The translations under genes and the position numbers were made by a program. From positions 1 through 29,948 of the forward strand of contig JAKEHF010000040.1 in the NCBI GenBank assembly GCA_022615295.1: a DNA stretch of 29,948 nt. Reading direction: 5' to 3'. Shown here piece by piece: positions 417 to 29,105 of the stretch. The notes under the pieces were generated by a model that saw nothing but the letters and a program-made list of their open reading frames with translations, ran no database searches and had not been told where the DNA came from. The stretch comes from Actinomycetota bacterium. Lineage in GTDB: Bacteria; Actinomycetota; Acidimicrobiia; Spongiisociales; ZC4RG35. Position 1 is the first letter of the stretch, and the number at the start of each line of letters is the position of its first letter.

Positions 417-1739
417 TCAGGAGCTGCGACGACCCTCGAGGATGCGTATGAAGGACCGGGTACGCAGCTCATCGACGGTGAGACCCGTCCGTTCGGTGGC
501 CTCGGGCTCTGTGATGGCCCCGCAGTTGACCGCCCTCAGGAAGTAATTGAGCAACCCCTGACCCGTGGCGGCGTCGTCGAAGACGTCCCCGACGAGGGTC
601 GCCTTAGCGGCGGAGTCGACGAAGTTGCGGAGACGGGCTCCGGCCGGCTCCAGACCCTCGAGGAAGAACGAGTACACCGCGGCGTAACGCGTGGGGATCT
701 GGGCGGGGTGGAGGTCCCAACCCTGGTAGTAGCCGTGGATCAGTGAGTGCCTGATGTGTCCATAGTGGAGACGCATGGCATCATGGACGGTCTCGGTGTT
801 CTCCCGGCGCTGATCATCGTTCAGATCCTCGCCACGGTGGATCGGCACCGGCAGCACGTTGGTGGCGCCGTCGGAGAGCCAGATCCCGGTCCCGGCGAGA
901 CTCACCGCCAGATTGTCCTTGGCGAAGTCACAGACATGGTGGTCCATCATCTGATAGGCGGCGGTGATGTTGAGCGAGGCGGTGTAGTCGTAGGTTCCGA
1001 AATGGGCGCCACGTACTCTTCCGTGCGCCGCCTCGACCAGATGACGCAGACCGGAGCGGCCCGCGGCGTCGATCACGCTCTGCGGGGTCTCCACCATCAG
1101 CTCCAGGGCGATCTCCACGCCGAGATGCCTCTCGAGACGATCGACGGCCTCGGCAAACACCGCCACCTGCTCCCGATGCTGGATCTTGGGAAGGGTCACC
1201 GAGAAGCCCTCGGGCAGCCGCCCGGCGGTCTCGACCAGGGTGGTCACGAAGATGTCCAGGGTGCGCAGGGAGCGGCGGTGCAGCTCGCCGGAGAGTGGTT
1301 TTACCCTGATCCCGATGAACGGGGGAAGGGTGCCCGCGGTCATCCCCTTCGCAACCTCACCGGCCGTGGTCCGGGCATGACCGTCCTCCTCGTCGTCGGG
1401 CCGGTTCCCATAACCGTCCTCGAAGTCGATCCTGAAGTCCTCGACCGCCTCGCGCCCGAGCTTCTCCCTGACCAGGGGATGGACCCTTATCGCCCGGTCG
1501 GGAGTCATCCCCACGATGTCGGCGAGGGTCTCCGGGGTGGGCAACCAGACGTCCAGCGCGGCCACGGCCAGCTCTCCGAGCCGGATCGTGGTGTTCGAGG
1601 AGTAGAGCTGCGCCCCGCCGTAGACGGTATGGACCGGCTGACGATGGGGTCGCTCACCGGGGTAGGCGGCGGCCACCTCGGCCGCCGCTCCCAGGAGCCG
1701 CCCACCCCATCCACCCAGGGTCTGTTGATCGAAGGTCAC
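417..1739 (-). CDS. DUF6986-type HpcH/HpaI aldolase / CitE (citrate lyase beta)-like TIM-barrel enzyme
   Basis: Motifs FRIDFEDGYG, LMVETP, HFGTYDYTASL and QGWDLHPAQ resemble the CitE/malyl-CoA lyase Mg-binding fold. The start is placed at GTG 1739 (TACGCT 8 nt upstream); the ORF track starts at 1769. Confidence 0.75.
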   Translation of the reverse strand: MTFDQQTLGGWGGRLLGAAAEVAAAYPGERPHRQPVHTVYGGAQLYSSNTTIRLGELAVAALDVWLPTPETLADIVGMTPDRAIRVHPLVREKLGREAVEDFRIDFEDGYGNRPDDEEDGHARTTAGEVAKGMTAGTLPPFIGIRVKPLSGELHRRSLRTLDIFVTTLVETAGRLPEGFSVTLPKIQHREQVAVFAEAVDRLERHLGVEIALELMVETPQSVIDAAGRSGLRHLVEAAHGRVRGAHFGTYDYTASLNITAAYQMMDHHVCDFAKDNLAVSLAGTGIWLSDGATNVLPVPIHRGEDLNDDQRRENTETVHDAMRLHYGHIRHSLIHGYYQGWDLHPAQIPTRYAAVYSFFLEGLEPAGARLRNFVDSAAKATLVGDVFDDAATGQGLLNYFLRAVNCGAITEPEATERTGLTVDELRTRSFIRILEGRRSS

Positions 1740-1792
1740 CGGCGGCGAGCGTAGACCATCCGTTCTCACGGGGACCCGTAAGGTTTGCGTCC
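1740..1792. promoter_or_regulatory. Compact divergent promoter region, probably leaderless in both directions
   Basis: Minus strand: TACGCT (1753-1748), 8 nt before GTG 1739. Plus strand: TAAGGT (1779-1784), 8 nt before GTG 1793. No Shine-Dalgarno seen. Confidence 0.5.
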
Positions 1793-21832: not shown

Positions 21833-22297
21833 TCAGTCGGCCAGGGTCTTGGCGGCGAGATCGGCCCGGTACTCGGCGAGCTTCTGACGTAGATCGCTGT
21901 CACCGACGGCGAGGATGGCGACCGCGAGGAGTGCCGCATTGACGGCACCATCGATGGCCACCGTGGCCACCGGGATCCCGGTGGGCATCTGGACCGTGGC
22001 GAGAAGGGCGTCCATGCCGTCGAGCGAGGCGGAGAGGGGGACGCCTATCACCGGGAGCAGCGACTTGGCGGCCATCACCCCGGCGAGATGCGCCGCCTTC
22101 CCGGCGCCTGCGATGATCACCTCGAACCCCTGATCGGCCGCGGTGGCGGCGAACTCCATGGCCTCGTCGGGCGTCTTATGGGCAGAGATGACCCTGGTGA
22201 CGTGATCGACTCCGAAGTGCTCCAGCATCATGGCCGCCTTCTCCATAACCGGCCGATCGCTACCCGATCCCATGAGGACCGCCACCCTGTGTGTCAC
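21833..22297 (-). CDS. purE: PurE (N5-CAIR mutase / AIR carboxylase)
   Basis: [40 protein letters not shown]-x-GIPVATV and NAALLA. Confidence 0.95.
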
Positions 22298-22317
22298 AGG
22301 GACGACGGTAATCGGCC

Positions 22318-23997
22318 ATGAGGAAGGTCATCGGGCTGGTTCTGGTCACGACCGGCGGGTTGGTGCTCTATCTCCTCACCGACGCCGGCGAGGCGCCGAA
22401 CGCCACCCCACCTCTCGCGGTCCCAACCACAGCGTCGACCTTTCATGCGACGACATCCACATCGGCGATCGTCGACCCGGGACGGTCCATCGATCGAGGT
22501 CCGGCAAGGTCGATCATCCGGGCTGCCCTGCCCGATGGCACGGAGTTCACAGTCGACATCTCCCTGGTGCTCGAGGAGGCCCCGATCTCGCTCTGGGCGG
22601 GACCGATCGTGATGGACATCGATGGTGAACCGAGCGTCGTTGGAGCAACGCAACTGTCCTTCACACCATACGAGGGCACGACGTTCGACGACGGGCTGTA
22701 CCGCACCTCCGCCGGCGGATACTTCCTCCAGATCGACTTCTATGACCATGTTCTGGCGGCGCTCGGACCTGATGCCGCGGCCGTCATCCGAGACTCGATC
22801 ACAGGCGAGGTGCGATCGAGTTATCCGGTGGTGGTTCTCGAGGAGCCCTTCTATTGGGGTGACGACGACCAGTTTGCCCTCCAGATGGAAGTGGACTTCG
22901 GGCTGTTCGAGGTTCGCCGTGGATGTGGAGACCAGGCAGTTGCCTGTAACGAGACCAGGGCCGTCCAGGTGATACCAGCGGAGTCCGCTCGGTTCCCCGC
23001 GCCGGAGTGGCCCGACGACACGTTTGTGGCCATCCACTCCTTTGCTCCGAGACCAGAGGATGATCCCAACTATCTCGATCCCGGGCCGTTGTCCCCTCGT
23101 TACGCAGCAGATGTCATCTGGACCGGCGAGGAGATGATCGTCTGGGGTGGAGCCGATCAGGGGGTCCGGCCCTTTCTGGTCGACGGTGCCATTCTTGATG
23201 GTGATACGGGAGCCTGGCGGCTTCTCCCCGAGTCGCAAATCCGACTTGGCCGCAACACCCGAGCAGTCTGGCGCGATGATCGGCTGATCGTCGTCAGCTC
23301 CGACGCGGTTGTGGCCTATGACCCGGCAAACGACAGCTGGTCGGAGCTGGGACCTGGGGTGGCATTGGGTCGGAGCCCGGATCACATCGTGGCCGCCGAG
23401 GACTCCATCTATGTCTGGTCCAACCAGATCCATGTGTTCGACATCGACAGTGGGTCTTGGTCGACATTGCCCGATCCTCCCTTCCCGGTTGGTGGTGAGG
23501 ACTGGCAGCGCGCGATTCGATCCTTCAACGGACATCTCCTCGCGGTGGGAACGACCGGCTTCTGTGATGACACGTCCTTGGCGTACTGGTCGGAGGGCGA
23601 GTGGTGGATCGTTCGCGCAGAAGTCGAAGCTTGCCCGCGGCAGACGGCAACATCAGGGGACCTCCTCTTGTTCTGGAGTGAGAATTTCGCGACGTACGTG
23701 CGTTGGGTCGAAGGGGGGCCGTTGAACTCCGTCATCGTCGACTCCCATGGGATGGGTGGGACCGAGGGCGCAGCCGGTGGGCTTGACTTCGGTGACGGAA
23801 GGATTCTGATTCCCCAGTACGGGGAGGGGGCGATCTTCGACAGGAGCGGGTGGACCCGGGTCGAGCTCCCCGGCTGGGGCACCGAATGGGACATGGTCTG
23901 GACCGGCGAGGAGGTCCTGATGTGGGGTGTCCCGCTGTGTTGTATCGAGGACGGTGCCACCGTCGACGCCTGGAAGTGGACACCACCGCCACCGTGA
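22318..23997 (+). CDS. Hypothetical exported or membrane-anchored protein with a C-terminal Kelch-like beta-propeller
   Basis: N-terminal hydrophobic segment and Thr/Ser-rich linker. Blade-like repeats VIWTGEEMIVWGG and MVWTGEEVLMWG, plus YDPANDSWSEL and FDIDSGSWSTL. Confidence 0.65.
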   Translation: MRKVIGLVLVTTGGLVLYLLTDAGEAPNATPPLAVPTTASTFHATTSTSAIVDPGRSIDRGPARSIIRAALPDGTEFTVDISLVLEEAPISLWAGPIVMDIDGEPSVVGATQLSFTPYEGTTFDDGLYRTSAGGYFLQIDFYDHVLAALGPDAAAVIRDSITGEVRSSYPVVVLEEPFYWGDDDQFALQMEVDFGLFEVRRGCGDQAVACNETRAVQVIPAESARFPAPEWPDDTFVAIHSFAPRPEDDPNYLDPGPLSPRYAADVIWTGEEMIVWGGADQGVRPFLVDGAILDGDTGAWRLLPESQIRLGRNTRAVWRDDRLIVVSSDAVVAYDPANDSWSELGPGVALGRSPDHIVAAEDSIYVWSNQIHVFDIDSGSWSTLPDPPFPVGGEDWQRAIRSFNGHLLAVGTTGFCDDTSLAYWSEGEWWIVRAEVEACPRQTATSGDLLLFWSENFATYVRWVEGGPLNSVIVDSHGMGGTEGAAGGLDFGDGRILIPQYGEGAIFDRSGWTRVELPGWGTEWDMVWTGEEVLMWGVPLCCIEDGATVDAWKWTPPPP

Positions 23998-24021: not shown

Positions 24022-25344
24022 GTGCGTGGCCTGCTCGTCGATCTGACGCCTCTTCGGGTTAGTCCCACCTATCGCCATCTCTGGATGGGTGGGGCCCTGG
24101 CGGGAATGGGGTCTCAGCTCACGGCCGTCGCCGTCGGTCTCCAGGTGTACGAGCTCTCGGGCTCGACACTCGCAGTCGGATTCGTCGGGTTGGCGGCCTT
24201 TGTGCCCCTTGTGGTTCTCGGGCTGTACGGGGGGTCGATCGTGGACGCCTACGACCGGCGGAAGGTTCTCATCGTCACCTTGAGCGGTCTGTCGGCAGTG
24301 GGGGTGACACTCGCCGTCCTCGCTTGGACGGGGACGGCACGGGTCGGTCTTCTCTATGCCCTGGTGGGCATACAGGCCGGCTTCTTTGCGGTCCAGGCCC
24401 CGGCACGTCAGGCGGTGATCCCTCGTCTGCTGTCCCCGGAGCTGCTACCCGCTGCCAACGCCTTGGCGACCCTCGCCATGGGTATCTCCTTCGCGGCTGG
24501 CCCGATGTTGGGCGGAGTGCTCGTCGACCAGGCCGGGTACGGGTGGGCCTACGGCGTGGAGGTGGTTCTGCTGCTCGGCGCCCTGACGCTGATCTTCACC
24601 CTGCCCAGCCTGGTCCCCGAGGGTGAGGTCCGCCGGGCCGGGCTCGGCTCCGTTGTCGAGGGTCTTCGCTTTCTGAGGACGAGACCCACGGTGGGGATGA
24701 CGTTCTTCGTCGACCTCAGCGCGATGGTCCTCGCTCTCCCCCGTGTCCTGTTCCCGGCCATCGCCACGCTGATGATCGGTGGTGGGGCAACCACGGTGGG
24801 GATCCTCGTCTCCGGGATAGCGGTGGGGACTCTCCTCGGTGGGATCTTCTCGGGGAGGCTGGGCAGGATCAACCGTCAGGGTCTGGCCGTCGTCGCCGCG
24901 GTGGTCGCCTGGGGGCTCTTCGTCGCCGCCTTCGGTGTGGTCGTCGCCCTGGCTCCGGGCCCTGGGCCGGGTGGTCAGGCCAACTGGGCGCTGTGGCCGG
25001 CAGCCTTGTTCATGGTGCTCGCAGGGGCCGCCGACACGGTTAGTGCGGTGTTCCGCACGACCATCCTCCAGGTGGCGACGCCCGACGCCCTCCGGGGGAG
25101 ACTCCAGGGTGTCTTCACCGTGGTGGTTGCCGGTGGGCCTCAACTCGGATCCCTGCTCCTCGGATCCGTGGCCGCGGCCACCGGCGAGCCGACGGCTGCG
25201 ATCATCGGTGGGGTGGTGTGCGCCGCTTTGGTCGCCGTAGTCTCGGTACGACAGAAGGGTCTCATCGCCTACGACGCACGTGATCCGGGTGCGGAGACGG
25301 GGCTACGTCCTAGAAGGGGTGTAGAGCCCACATTGAGCCCATAG
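24022..25344 (+). CDS. MFS transporter, EntS/H+-antiporter-like exporter
   Basis: About 12 hydrophobic segments; GGSIVDAYDRRK (motif A), PARQAVIPRL and TPDALRGRLQG. Confidence 0.88.
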   Translation: MRGLLVDLTPLRVSPTYRHLWMGGALAGMGSQLTAVAVGLQVYELSGSTLAVGFVGLAAFVPLVVLGLYGGSIVDAYDRRKVLIVTLSGLSAVGVTLAVLAWTGTARVGLLYALVGIQAGFFAVQAPARQAVIPRLLSPELLPAANALATLAMGISFAAGPMLGGVLVDQAGYGWAYGVEVVLLLGALTLIFTLPSLVPEGEVRRAGLGSVVEGLRFLRTRPTVGMTFFVDLSAMVLALPRVLFPAIATLMIGGGATTVGILVSGIAVGTLLGGIFSGRLGRINRQGLAVVAAVVAWGLFVAAFGVVVALAPGPGPGGQANWALWPAALFMVLAGAADTVSAVFRTTILQVATPDALRGRLQGVFTVVVAGGPQLGSLLLGSVAAATGEPTAAIIGGVVCAALVAVVSVRQKGLIAYDARDPGAETGLRPRRGVEPTLSP

Positions 25345-25373
25345 AGCGGAGATAGAGCCAACGCCGACATCCT
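25311..25373 (+). promoter_or_regulatory. Putative SARP operator: heptamer direct repeats at 11-bp spacing plus a candidate -10
   Basis: TAGAAGG 25311, TAGAGCC 25322, TTGAGCC 25333 (11-bp steps); TAGAGCG 25342, TAGAGCC 25353 (11-bp step). CATCCT at 25368-25373 lies 8 nt after the last heptamer. Confidence 0.6.
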
Positions 25374-25436
25374 CTTGACAGCCATCCGTCACCTTCCACC
25401 GAGGCGGAGATACCGCCGGATCGAAAGGAGACGGAG

Positions 25437-25853: not shown

Positions 25854-25907
25854 GCAGGGGCACCGCCGATGACGGAATCGGTAACGTCGACGGCGAGAAG
25901 GGAGCAC

Positions 25908-28900
25908 ATGGTGAGGTTCCACCTCCTGGGATCTCTGACCGTGGATGCCGATGGGCGCCCGATAGATCTGGGGCCGCCCAAACAGCGCTCCGTTCTCGCC
26001 GTCCTCCTTCTTCATGCCAACGAGATCGTCCCCACGGACAGGATCATCGACATGGTCTGGGGGGACGAGCCACCTCGGACGGCGGACCACTCGGTCCAGA
26101 TCTACATCTCCGACCTGCGCAGGGCCCTGGCCAACGGGTCGAGCGGTGACCTCATCGAGACAAGGCCTCCCGGATACGTGCTCAACATCCCTCCCGATGC
26201 CGTAGATATCCTGCGTTTCGAGGGTTTGGTCCGTGATGGTCTCGCTGCCATCAGAACCGGCGACGTGGGGACCGGTCGACCCAAACTGGAGAAGGCCCTC
26301 CAGTCATGGACGGGCCCTCCACTTGCCGACTTTGCATATGAGGAGTTCGCCCAGGGTCACATCCGCTCCCTCGGGGAGCTTCGCTCCGATGCCCTGGAGA
26401 CGCTCGGCGGAATCCACCTCGACCAGGGCCTGAACGACATGGCCCGCGAGCTTGCCGGTGAGGCGATTGCTGCAGACCCCCTCCGGGAAGAGCCGCGACG
26501 TCTCAAGATGCTCGCCCTCTACCGAACCGGCCGTCAGGCCGAGGCCCTGCGTCACTACGCCCACTATCGGTCACTCCTTGCAGACGAGCTCGGTATCGAA
26601 CCGTCGCCGGCCCTACGCGATCTGGAGGAGCGAATCCTTCTTCAGGATCCCAGCTTGAGTCTTCGTGTCGAGACCGCCGCCGAGGGCAATCCCTATAGGG
26701 GTCTACGCGCCTTCTCCGAGGAGGACTCGGAGGTCTACTTCGGAAGGGAGTCGTTGGTCGGTGAGACGCTCGATCGTCTCCGCAATGGGCCGGGTTTTGT
26801 CTCCATCGTCGGGCCATCGGGTTCGGGCAAGTCGAGTGCGGCGCGCGCCGGCGTGGTGCCGGCTCTGCGGGAGCAGGGGGAGACCGTGGTCGTGTTCCAA
26901 CCGGGGACCCGTCCGCTCTGGGAGCTCGCCGGGGCGCTGGATAGGGCCGGTTTCGGGACCCGGGCTGCATTGATGCGCAGATTCGAGAGCGACCCACAGA
27001 CCCTGGTGACCGTCATCTCCAGGTCGGTGGTCCTCATCGTCGACCAATTCGAGGAGCTCTTCACCCTCGCCGAGCCGGACGATGCCATCAGATTCTCAGA
27101 GCTCCTGGCGGCCGGGATCCGTGACCATCGAACGCCACTTCGGGTCGTCGCCACCCTGCGTGCCGACTACTACGACCGCCCGCTCTCCATGCCGGCCCTG
27201 GCCGGCGTGTTCACAGACTCGGTGGTCTCGGTGAAACCGATGACGGCCGCCGAGATCGAACGGGCGGTGGTGGAGCCGGCGCGTATCGCGGGCGTCACAG
27301 TGGATCCCGCCCTACTGGCGCAGCTCGTCGCCGACATGGGTGACGAGCCGGGAGCCTTGCCCCTCCTCCAATTCACGCTGTTCGAGCTTTTCGAACGCTC
27401 TGACGGGTCGATGACCCTCGTCACTTACAACGAGCTGGGCGGGATTCATGGGGCTCTCACGGGTGGTGCAGATCAGCTCTACGAAGAGCTCGACACGGCG
27501 GGGCAGGACCTCGTGGAGCAACTGCTCATGAGGATGGTGCGCAAGGGCAAGACCATGAGCACCTCCCGTCCGGTCCTTCTCCGGGAGCTGATGGAGCTCG
27601 GTGTGGACAATGTCGCCCTTCAGGGGGTCCTCGAGGCCTTCAGCTCGAGACGTCTGGTCACCTTCGACCGTGACGCCTCGGGCGCCGCCGTCGTCGCGAT
27701 GGCCCATGAGTACCTGATCACGGAGTGGCCCCGTCTGGTGTCCTGGATCGAGACCCACTCCGAGGACCTCGACCGTCTCCTCGCCCTCGACGCCGCCAGC
27801 ACCGAATGGGAGATCGCCGAGCAATCCGAGGACTACCTACTCCGGGGAGAGCGTCTCGACCGTTTCGACGGTTGGCGGCATACGACCACCCTCCGGCTCA
27901 CCACCCCGGAGACGGCGTTTATAGACGCATCCCTGGAGCTGCGCACCAGGGAGACGATCGCCCAGAAAGAGGCTGCCGCAAAGGAGAGCGAGCTAACCAG
28001 GAAGGCAAGGAGACGGCTTTGGGCCTTCGGCACGGCGGTGGCGGCGTTGGCGGCGGCGGTGACCATGTTGGTCCTGACCCTGATCCCCGATCCGCCGCCT
28101 GACGTGGTGCTCTGGGCTCCCCCTGCCGGGGACGGTGGCTTTGGAGACCGGATCAATGAAGGTGTGAACAGGGCCGCAGAGGAGCATGCGTGGACCATTG
28201 CCTTCTTTCCCGACAGTGACCCGGGATTCGTCACCGATGTCGCCGCGCTCGTCGACGACGGGGCCCCGCTCGTGTTGATGACGCTGAACCTGCTGGGGCA
28301 CCCCGGGGTCGAAGAGATGATGGAGGATCATCCGGAGACCCAGTTCGTGTGGATCGACTGCGAGACGGGGCTCCTGGAGTCCCCCCGTCCAAACGAGACA
28401 TGCATCGGCACGGACCATCGTGAGATGGGATATCTCGCCGGGGTGGCGGCCGGGTTGACCACAGAGAGTGATCATGTCGGCATCGTCGTCGGCATGGACG
28501 CCCCGTTCATGAATCAGTTCGAGATGGGCTTCCGAGCCGGTGTCGCCAGGGTGAACCCGATCGCCGAGGTGGGGGCGATCTACCTGAGCAGGTGGGGCGA
28601 GGGGTTCGGATCGCCCACCTTGGGTTACATCGGGGCGTCGACCCTGATCGGAGAGGGCGCGGATGTGATCTTCCATGCGGCCGGGATCTCGGGTGACGGT
28701 GTGATCGAGGCGGCGTACGACCATGGGCTCGAGTCCGGGCGTCGGGTGTGGGCCATCGGTGTCGACACCGACCAGCACGCAGTGCTCGAGACATGGAAAG
28801 ATCAACCATGGGTCGGCGATACCCCGGTCTCGGGCTGGCAGGGCATCCTCCTGACATCGATCGTGAAGAGACTGGACACCGCCGTCTATGCCGTCCTCGA

Positions 28901-29105
28901 AGCCTATGCCCGAACCGAGGAGGTCGGATTGACGACACTCACGATCGCCAACGGTGGAGTCGACTACGTAACCACAGGCGGCCATATCGATCCCATCAGG
29001 ACGGAGATGGATCAGGTCAAACGTGGGTTGATAGAGGGCACCGAGGAGATCCCGGTGGTCGACATCGAGCCGGTGAGACTCGTCGTCGACCTCGTCGCCC
29101 CCTGA
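25908..29105 (+). CDS. SARP-type regulator: wHTH + BTAD + nSTAND1 NTPase + TM + BMP-family substrate-binding domain
   Basis: LGPPKQRSVLAVLL...PPGYVL (wHTH); PLREE...MLALYRTGRQAEAL...ELGIEPS (BTAD); NPYRGLRAF, Walker A GPSGSGKSS, Walker B LIVDQFEELF, LPLLQFTL and HEYLITEWPRL (nSTAND1); TM LWAFGTAVAALAAAVTMLVLTLI; MGYLAGVAAG, GADVIFHAAG, AIGVDTDQ and TSIVKRLD (BMP). Start is 25869, 25908 or 25911. Confidence 0.88.
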   Translation: MVRFHLLGSLTVDADGRPIDLGPPKQRSVLAVLLLHANEIVPTDRIIDMVWGDEPPRTADHSVQIYISDLRRALANGSSGDLIETRPPGYVLNIPPDAVDILRFEGLVRDGLAAIRTGDVGTGRPKLEKALQSWTGPPLADFAYEEFAQGHIRSLGELRSDALETLGGIHLDQGLNDMARELAGEAIAADPLREEPRRLKMLALYRTGRQAEALRHYAHYRSLLADELGIEPSPALRDLEERILLQDPSLSLRVETAAEGNPYRGLRAFSEEDSEVYFGRESLVGETLDRLRNGPGFVSIVGPSGSGKSSAARAGVVPALREQGETVVVFQPGTRPLWELAGALDRAGFGTRAALMRRFESDPQTLVTVISRSVVLIVDQFEELFTLAEPDDAIRFSELLAAGIRDHRTPLRVVATLRADYYDRPLSMPALAGVFTDSVVSVKPMTAAEIERAVVEPARIAGVTVDPALLAQLVADMGDEPGALPLLQFTLFELFERSDGSMTLVTYNELGGIHGALTGGADQLYEELDTAGQDLVEQLLMRMVRKGKTMSTSRPVLLRELMELGVDNVALQGVLEAFSSRRLVTFDRDASGAAVVAMAHEYLITEWPRLVSWIETHSEDLDRLLALDAASTEWEIAEQSEDYLLRGERLDRFDGWRHTTTLRLTTPETAFIDASLELRTRETIAQKEAAAKESELTRKARRRLWAFGTAVAALAAAVTMLVLTLIPDPPPDVVLWAPPAGDGGFGDRINEGVNRAAEEHAWTIAFFPDSDPGFVTDVAALVDDGAPLVLMTLNLLGHPGVEEMMEDHPETQFVWIDCETGLLESPRPNETCIGTDHREMGYLAGVAAGLTTESDHVGIVVGMDAPFMNQFEMGFRAGVARVNPIAEVGAIYLSRWGEGFGSPTLGYIGASTLIGEGADVIFHAAGISGDGVIEAAYDHGLESGRRVWAIGVDTDQHAVLETWKDQPWVGDTPVSGWQGILLTSIVKRLDTAVYAVLEAYARTEEVGLTTLTIANGGVDYVTTGGHIDPIRTEMDQVKRGLIEGTEEIPVVDIEPVRLVVDLVAP

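Follow-up and report, generated by a model that had tools for sequence, protein, structure and literature searches.

The stretch of DNA analysed here, referred to as the window, comprises 29,948 nucleotides (nt) of contig JAKEHF010000040.1 (assembly GCA_022615295.1). Towards its end lies the gene of a large regulator in which a SARP-type DNA-binding module, an nSTAND1 NTPase, a predicted membrane helix and a BMP-type binding domain follow one another in a single polypeptide, and which is preceded by a small gene and a candidate operator (Table 1). Residue numbers refer to the 1078-amino-acid (aa) form of the regulator; a second ATG at position 25908 gives a 1065-aa form, and an identical protein is present in a public collection at 1065 aa. 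The G+C content at third codon positions (GC3) of the reading frame is 0.79, which is like that of the genuine genes of the window, and the regulator gene is real and intact.

Table 1. Features of the regulator locus, with domain matches and mapped pocket residues of the regulator
Feature	Position (nt)	Strand	Residues	Evidence or remark
Candidate SARP operator	25311..25359	+		direct sequence reading; layout kept in orthologues
-10-like hexamer CATCCT	25368..25373	+		8 nt past last heptamer
Conserved 5' leader	25389..25436	+		CACCTT block; GGCGG...CCGCC hairpin 25403-25417; Shine-Dalgarno AAGGAG 25425-25430
Predicted small single-pass membrane protein P0122	25437..25853	+	138 aa	GC3 0.83; AlphaFold2 model
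Regulator gene, SARP-BTAD-nSTAND1-transmembrane helix-BMP	25869..29105	+	1078 aa from ATG 25869	
SARP module, OmpR-type winged helix-turn-helix plus BTAD	25974..26639	+		Pfam, Foldseek
Trans_reg_C (PF00486)			36-105	Pfam, 47.6 bits, gathering score 26.2
BTAD (PF03704)			112-257	Pfam, 124.9 bits, gathering score 22.1
nSTAND1 NTPase	26691..27830	+		Walker A nt 26811-26837, Walker B nt 27030-27056
nSTAND1 (PF20703)			275-654	Pfam, profile positions 1-378 of 379, E 3.6e-102
Cassette: end of juxtamembrane helix, KARRR, predicted transmembrane helix	27951..28085	+	E695-I739 (45 residues)	alignment, hydropathy
BMP/PnrA-type periplasmic-binding-protein domain	28101..29063	+	about 745-1065	
Bmp (PF02608)			754-1031	Pfam, 103.9 bits, gathering score 24.1, E 1.1e-29
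Stacking pair			F758 = PnrA Phe36	49/70 F, remainder aromatic or aliphatic
Stacking pair			F913 = PnrA Phe186	67/70
Pocket wall			F884 = PnrA Phe161	63/70
Ribose triad			D830 = PnrA Asp108	59/70 D, 6 E
Ribose triad			D966 = PnrA Asp238	70/70
Ribose triad			K1000 = PnrA Lys260	66/70

Domain architecture of the regulator

All four regulator domains exceeded the gathering scores of their Pfam families, which bears out the SARP-BTAD-nSTAND1-transmembrane-BMP order that had been proposed from the sequence in the original prediction. The landmarks named there, i.e. NPYRGL (N274-L279, around nt 26688), Walker A (GPSGSGKSS, residues 315-323), Walker B (VLIVDQFEE, starting at nt 27030), the basic stretch KARRR (residues 712-716) and the hydrophobic stretch, were also found in their places. 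An OmpR-type winged helix directly precedes the BTAD domain in the Pfam calls, which is the arrangement that defines a SARP. The nSTAND1 profile is matched over its full length, and both Walker A and the acidic residues of Walker B are intact. Across 70 aligned relatives G315, P316, S317, G318, G320, K321, S322, S323, D392 and E395 of the NTPase are invariant.

An AlphaFold2 model of the regulator, built on the alignment of these 70 relatives, reached a mean predicted local distance difference test (pLDDT) score of 90.9. In this model a single helix (679-725) runs into the hydrophobic segment, and residues 718-739 form the sole internal region of low pLDDT. When compared with the PDB by means of Foldseek, the SARP part matched the SARP domain of AfsR (8k60, 8hvr) with target TM-scores of 0.88-0.89 and 40-41% identity, the superposition on 8k60_I giving a target TM-score of 0.89, a root mean square deviation of 2.3 Å and 41% identity, and it matched EmbR (2ff4) with a deviation of 1.8 Å. 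The AfsR equivalog profile of NCBIfam (NF053617) gave 164.8 bits, far below its cut-off of 1430, and covered residues 9-313 only.

The small upstream gene and the candidate operator

The small gene lies 15-54 nt upstream of the regulator gene on the same strand, and adjoins it in the window as well as in the related loci L005, L007, L008, L085, L086, L089, L090, L092 and L012. No terminator was seen between the two genes, and they are probably co-transcribed. The product, P0122, matched no family in a Pfam search. It is predicted to consist of a short, conserved cytoplasmic N-terminus (MTVLEK), a transmembrane helix, and a long α-helix outside the cell; in the AlphaFold2 model a helix spanning residues 13-41 is followed by an uninterrupted 84-residue helix (48-131), with pLDDT values of 82-94 over the blocks 51-130. 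The outside helix is made up of repeats of about 22 residues of the type I-x-E-Q-R-A-x-D-M-V, the number of which differs among relatives. The small protein is represented by only 25 clusters at 50% identity among 1.8 billion representatives.

Upstream of the small gene we found five TAGAGC-like heptamers in direct orientation: TAGAAGG at 25311, which is weak, TAGAGCC at 25322, TTGAGCC at 25333, TAGAGCG at 25342, and TAGAGCC at 25353, with spacings of 11, 11, 9 and 11 nt and the consensus TAGAGC(C/G). Behind the last of them follows the -10-like hexamer, and there is no -35 element at this promoter. A scan of the small-gene promoter for the sigma-70-type consensus gave no match, as expected for an activator-dependent promoter. 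The layout recurs in L005, L007, L008, L085 and L092 and, in looser form, in L006, L086, L012 and L091. At the same 8-nt distance four of these loci carry the hexamers GATCCT (L005), GAATCT (L007), GATTCT (L085) and GATTCC (L008). By sequence, direct repeats with an 11-base-pair period over the -35 region make this a candidate SARP target site. As a dimer whose subunits sit side by side, AfsR occupies two 11-base-pair direct repeats over the -35 region, and its C-terminal NOD-TPR part keeps it inhibited until ATP binds (PMC10936776). By analogy, the box layout in the window fits the mode of action of AfsR.

A strict scan for four repeats with fixed 11-nt spacing found nothing, because the array has a 9-nt step midway; therefore, TAGAGC-N5-TAGAGC pairs scoring at least 11/12 were used instead. 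In the genome from which the window derives (2.0 Mb, 92% complete), every such pair belongs to the operator at 25311-25359. In 23 related loci, together 333 kb, there are 20 pairs at this threshold; none is farther than 750 nt from the regulator gene and 19 share its strand, compared to 1.15 expected from shuffled sequences. Loci from Chloroflexota, Limnocylindrales and Geodermatophilaceae carry a pair 40-110 nt upstream of the regulator gene, and in L010 it is located upstream of an exported-protein gene that precedes the regulator. Where the adjacent exported-protein gene sits downstream of the regulator, a second pair precedes that gene. The adjacent genes in those loci encode exported or membrane-anchored proteins of several unrelated types, and a Pfam search of six of these small or exported putative target proteins from different lineages gave no match. 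From the placement of the boxes we infer, with moderate to strong confidence, that the small gene and the regulator form an autoregulated unit that is activated by its own product.

Two further elements were noted in this region. In L005, L007, L085, L006 and L092 an additional in-phase CTCTAGAG element is present 22 nt past the last heptamer and immediately behind the -10-like hexamer. The corresponding CTCTAGAG element of the window, at 25375-25381, is degenerate (TTGACAG). The element may serve as an added binding position and might act in autorepression. Equivalents of the small gene's 5' leader are present in L005, L006, L007, L008, L085, L089 and L092. When eight orthologous leaders were folded with RNAalifold, the hairpin was predicted, with two of its five base pairs showing compensation, as well as a possible pairing between CACCUU and AAGGAG that is nearly invariant in sequence. 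The leader may perhaps be a translational control element.

Predicted membrane helix and sensor domain, and family distribution

Residues L717-I739 (nt 28017-28085) form a hydrophobic helix, of which the best 19-residue Kyte-Doolittle window (721-739) averages 2.24, compared to 1.55 for the next-best stretch elsewhere in the regulator. It is flanked by KARRR in front and PDPPPD behind, so that the positive-inside rule is satisfied. The helix was found in 52 of the 70 aligned relatives, with Kyte-Doolittle values of 1.9-3.0, RRR ahead and PxPPPD behind. In the other 18 it is missing, mostly as a clean gap that corresponds to E695-I739 and leaves the BMP domain directly after the NTPase region; the BMP domain of these proteins is therefore predicted to be cytoplasmic. 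On a FastTree tree with midpoint rooting, calculated from the alignment without the helix region, the helix-less state requires nine changes, at least eight of which are forced by well-supported branches. The predicted topology is not fixed across the family, and the helix is best described as a variable cassette of 45 residues.

The sole cysteines of the regulator, C831 (nt 28359-28361) and C845 (nt 28401-28403), border a variable loop just past the ribose-binding residue D830. Within the major clade to which the regulator belongs, the pair is present in all 35 helix-bearing members and in 2 of the 14 helix-less ones (Fisher p about 1e-9 when kinship is ignored), and its loss recurs in each of the four helix-less lineages. 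That the pair follows the helix supports a location of the BMP domain outside the cell, since the pattern would look like that of a disulfide which is needed outside and dispensable inside. Taken together, hydropathy, charge bias and the cysteine pair strongly favour the topology with the N-terminus inside and the C-terminus outside, in agreement with the original prediction. Its description of the protein as membrane-spanning holds for the regulator in the window, as a predicted helix, and fails as a fixed trait of the family.

The small protein could be thought of as an obligatory outside partner of the regulator, comparable to ToxS. This reading was set aside: the helix-less members L006 and L008 retain the small gene, which makes an obligatory partnership with an outside BMP domain unlikely, and in L091 the small gene stands alone with its own box. 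A complex prediction of BMP residues 741-1078 with the small-protein helix 38-138 gave a score of 0.00, in a run without controls, and no verdict; it counts neither way.

The BMP fold of the C-terminal region, on which the original prediction depended, was confirmed by Pfam, by HMMER matches to PDB sequences (7x0r, E 7e-32; 2fqw, E 9e-23), and by Foldseek, which found a periplasmic-binding-protein type I fold. The top Foldseek matches in the PDB were nucleoside-bound BMP proteins (7x0r, 6y9u, 6yab, 6shu and 2fqw), with target TM-scores of 0.70-0.74, the bound ligands being guanosine in Lbp (7x0r), uridine, adenosine or thymidine in pneumococcal PnrA, adenosine in BmpD, and inosine in PnrA of Treponema pallidum. 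Pocket residues were mapped by HMMER alignment to T. pallidum PnrA, in which chain index plus 15 equals the published numbering, as checked at Ser86/Phe87; the pocket residues used for this mapping are named in PMC7093131 and PMC13325309.

The ribose-binding Asp/Asp/Lys triad and the two stacking aromatics are present (Table 1), so that the alignment gives good support to a ribosyl ligand that stacks between two aromatic rings, and a nucleoside-like ligand can be predicted with moderate confidence. The contacts that read the base differ: Asp27, Ser28 and Asn37 of PnrA are replaced by W749, A750 and G759, and these columns are variable across the family. The nucleoside-type ligand that had been proposed thus stands in kind, on account of the ribose triad, the stacking phenylalanines and the fold matches, and not in identity. 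Most helix-less forms retain the pocket signature, and one clade has altered it (D to G, K to W). Overall, the BMP domain is the least conserved part of the protein, with a mean column identity of 0.50 versus 0.68-0.73 for the cytoplasmic domains.

Unlike the binding proteins of importers, the domain is internal to a 1078-residue protein that has neither a lipoprotein signal nor an adjoining ABC permease or ATPase gene; besides the small gene, genes for an MFS protein and an EamA protein lie next to the regulator. Of note, contig C199 of the same genome (L003:700-3368) encodes an ordinary Bmp protein of 395 aa (E 2e-50) followed by an ABC ATPase gene, thus the organism probably also owns a standard BMP-type importer.

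A database search, in which 8000 candidates were scored, yielded 1423 significant proteins. Of the best 120 clusters, about 110 carry all four Pfam domains, with identities of 42-74%. The family is spread over Acidimicrobiia, other Actinomycetota and Chloroflexota, with full-length genomic copies in metagenome-assembled genomes (MAGs) of Acidimicrobiia, Geodermatophilaceae, Chloroflexia and Limnocylindrales. The architecture is therefore not rare in databases, and is common in metagenomes and widespread in uncultured Actinomycetota and Chloroflexota. In the databases its members go under generic names, for instance 'BTAD domain-containing putative transcriptional regulator' or, at JGI, 'SARP.../basic membrane lipoprotein Med'. 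A literature search that covered nSTAND1, PF02608 together with BTAD, and SARP in combination with transmembrane or STAND terms brought up no paper that describes the architecture.

Two proteins of 650-755 aa without a Bmp match, P0078 and P0083, were initially read as split, two-protein forms. This was not upheld for P0078: its BMP part follows in an overlapping frame, and the same contig has a neighbouring acyl-CoA dehydrogenase gene that is likewise split, which suggests an assembly frameshift. In the case of P0083 a Bmp gene is called separately, about 120 nt further on, and here the status is less certain than for P0078. Such assemblies generate false 'SARP-nSTAND1 only' and 'Bmp only' proteins in the databases. 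Other large SARP proteins occur as well. A 1737-residue SARP - protein kinase - nSTAND1 - WD40 protein (L087:15197-19072) is encoded 4 kb from a helix-less family member, thus several large SARP-nSTAND1 paralogues can be present within one locus. In the genome of the window, contigs C139 (L002) and C146 (L004) contain two further large SARP-BTAD-ATPase genes, both truncated by contig ends; their ATPases belong to the AAA_22/NB-ARC-like and AAA_16 types, and the available portions show no Bmp domain.

Interpretation and comparison with known systems

We consider the regulator to be a transcription activator of the 'large SARP' kind that consists of one polypeptide and crosses the membrane once, with its own two-gene unit as target, and give this reading a probability of roughly 55%. 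A ribonucleoside-like ligand would close the BMP domain outside the cell, and this closure would alter the packing or clustering of the ectodomains and of the long juxtamembrane helices, whereby the NTPase would be freed to bind NTP and to oligomerise. The SARP modules would then be brought side by side on the phased TAGAGC boxes, where they would substitute for the missing -35 element and turn on the small helical-rod gene and the regulator gene, resulting in positive feedback. Since the products would be membrane proteins, co-translational insertion would hold the locus near the membrane-bound activator. Relatives that repeatedly lost the helix cassette would sense from inside, so that the same sensor would be used on either side of the membrane. 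The idea that the signal crosses the membrane because the ligand induces clustering, and the NTPase can then oligomerise, is speculative.

Several points weigh against this reading. A sensor behind a membrane helix cannot touch the NTPase, unlike in canonical STAND autoinhibition, which makes the transmembrane step conjectural. The genome is 92% complete and degenerate boxes would escape the scan, so more targets are possible. The helix-less relatives L006 and L008 keep the gene for the small membrane protein. With W749 and G759 at base-contact sites, the ligand may not be a standard nucleoside and may instead be another ribosyl compound or a polyol, and the BMP-fold relatives found by Foldseek include a riboflavin binder (4iil) and AtzT (6pii), a relative of the non-nucleoside-receptor kind. 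Finally, what is known of the family members comes from sequence and prediction.

The same machine might therefore respond to another ligand, such as a flavin, a B6 vitamer, a sugar or polyol, or a ribose-carrying signalling molecule. The unusual and variable base-reading positions and the low conservation of the BMP domain speak for this, as do a weak NCBIfam match to a putative B6 binding protein and the closeness of the RfuA and AtzT folds. Since the regulator has all six residues that define nucleoside binding in solved BMP structures, the family largely retains them, and a guanosine complex is the best match by both sequence and fold, we regard it as a serious yet unlikely alternative. 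Alternatively, given its nucleoside-type pocket, the regulator could sense external purine nucleosides and control the neighbouring genes for purine synthesis and catabolism. Such a locus, pointed out in the original prediction, does exist, as the window contains purM, purF, purL, purB and purE as well as genes for xanthine dehydrogenase, adenosine deaminase and an amidohydrolase. Moreover, the regulator unit is located between purE and purD-purA in L005, L007, L085, L089 and the loci of P0056 and P0078, has purE close by in the window, and adjoins a probable purE in L092, the latter identified solely from a short divergent start motif. In L005, L007 and probably L092, purE and the small gene diverge from a short intergenic region that contains the box array, so the purE promoter could also be affected there. 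However, all purine-linked loci fall in the clade of the regulator itself, and a single ancestral insertion into a conserved cluster is therefore sufficient to explain the pattern. There are no pur genes within 8 kb in 18 other loci, which are helix-less or distant. Between purE and the operator the window has two further genes, an MFS gene and a Kelch-like one, and downstream purD is replaced by an EamA gene. The pair scan found no TAGAGC box at purine promoters of the genome, nor a strong one at any promoter other than that of the regulator unit. Proximity to purine genes is no proof of a purine regulon; the placement is lineage-specific, a functional tie is possible, and control of purine metabolism, as originally hinted at, is not borne out and appears improbable.

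The nSTAND1 family was named and defined in work on conflict and counter-invader systems (PMC8195603), and the regulator could accordingly be a danger-sensing module with an immunity-type switch, the small membrane protein being the effector that is induced when the sensor fires. The apparent output, a single small membrane protein with a variable number of repeats, and the varying genomic context outside the core clade would agree with this. Nevertheless, within its clade the gene keeps its syntenic place among housekeeping genes and appears to be inherited vertically, and the window shows no mobile-element or defence genes nearby. Furthermore, as in regulators of the AfsR type, the effector domain activates transcription and its box is autoregulatory, and the AlphaFold2 model of the small protein is a long, soluble-type outside helix and no obvious pore former, which leaves little probability for a conflict system. 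It is even less likely that the hydrophobic stretch is no membrane helix at all and that the whole protein is cytoplasmic, like AfsR or MalT. The helix-less relatives do indicate that the BMP domain can function in the cytoplasm, and the confidence of the model is low for residues 718-739. Low pLDDT is normal for a lone transmembrane helix modelled without a membrane, and a run of 23 apolar residues, high Kyte-Doolittle values in 52 of the 70 relatives, the RRR and PxPPPD flanks, and a cysteine pair that is kept almost only alongside the helix all speak for insertion.

Returning to the membrane-bound activator, large SARPs and STAND or NLR-like switches are understood as soluble proteins, in which the sensor shuts the NTPase by direct contact. 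The regulator family might represent an NLR/STAND-type switch that is gated across a membrane without such contact, that was repeatedly converted between outside and inside sensing by gain or loss of a 45-residue cassette, and in which the cysteine pair decays with each move inside. This more far-reaching proposal is tentative, and we would not give it even odds. If true, STAND switches can be gated at a distance, probably by clustering, and a deletion of 45 residues returns the sensor to the inside. The system is compact, as it comprises a single regulator with a conserved DNA box, a single small target gene, and a soluble ligand-binding domain that lends itself to screening, and it belongs to a family that carries merely generic annotation in MAGs of Acidimicrobiia, other Actinomycetota and Chloroflexota.

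In the remainder of the window, two other observations concern the surroundings of the purine genes. A gene for a DUF6986 protein (417-1769, minus strand, E 5e-174) adjoins the block of amidohydrolase, xanthine dehydrogenase and adenosine deaminase genes. Two long open reading frames overlap on opposite strands, the Kelch-like one (22318-23997, plus strand), which has weak Kelch-repeat matches, and one without a family (22294-23535, minus strand), and either may be the real gene.

Of the known systems, AfsR and the other large SARPs of Streptomyces, with their SARP - NB-ARC/NOD - TPR order, and EmbR of Mycobacterium tuberculosis share the N-terminal winged helix-turn-helix and BTAD. AfsR and the large SARPs also have a STAND NTPase after the SARP part and 11-base-pair-phased repeats that replace the -35 element, as described for the afs box (PMC10936776) and predicted here. 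They differ in having an NB-ARC NTPase and a TPR sensor instead of nSTAND1 and a BMP fold, and no membrane helix between switch and sensor, in line with the NF053617 score below the cut-off. SARP-nSTAND1-WD40 proteins, such as the 1737-residue protein in L087, have the same SARP and nSTAND1 core, and in these as in MalT, a ligand-gated STAND activator, a C-terminal sensor gates NTP-dependent oligomerisation that drives transcription. These proteins are soluble, and their sensor can contact the NTPase directly.

On the sensor side, the closest relatives are the nucleoside-binding BMP lipoproteins of ABC importers, i.e. PnrA/TmpC of T. pallidum, PnrA of Streptococcus pneumoniae, BmpD and BmpA of Borrelia burgdorferi, and Lbp of Clostridium thermocellum, which have the same fold, Pfam family, ribose-binding Asp/Asp/Lys and stacking phenylalanine pair. 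The regulator differs from them by a base-reading loop of its own and by the predicted anchoring through its own transmembrane helix. Med of Bacillus, an activator of comK (2hqb; Foldseek E 9.4e-11), is another example of a BMP fold in gene regulation. It is a lipoprotein that stands alone, without a DNA-binding or NTPase part.

The predicted topology finds its counterpart in ToxR, CadC and TcpP, which have a cytoplasmic N-terminal winged helix-turn-helix, one transmembrane helix and a C-terminal sensor outside the cell. ToxS and TcpH are small single-pass membrane proteins encoded beside their regulators, and the regulator described here likewise has a gene for such a protein next to it. ToxR, CadC and TcpP contain neither a BTAD nor an NTPase and their outside domains are unrelated. 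The small gene of the window lies upstream of its regulator and resembles a target more than a chaperone. As there is no homology past the winged helix-turn-helix, we do not file the regulator as a member of the ToxR group, and propose as a working analogy that it works like one.

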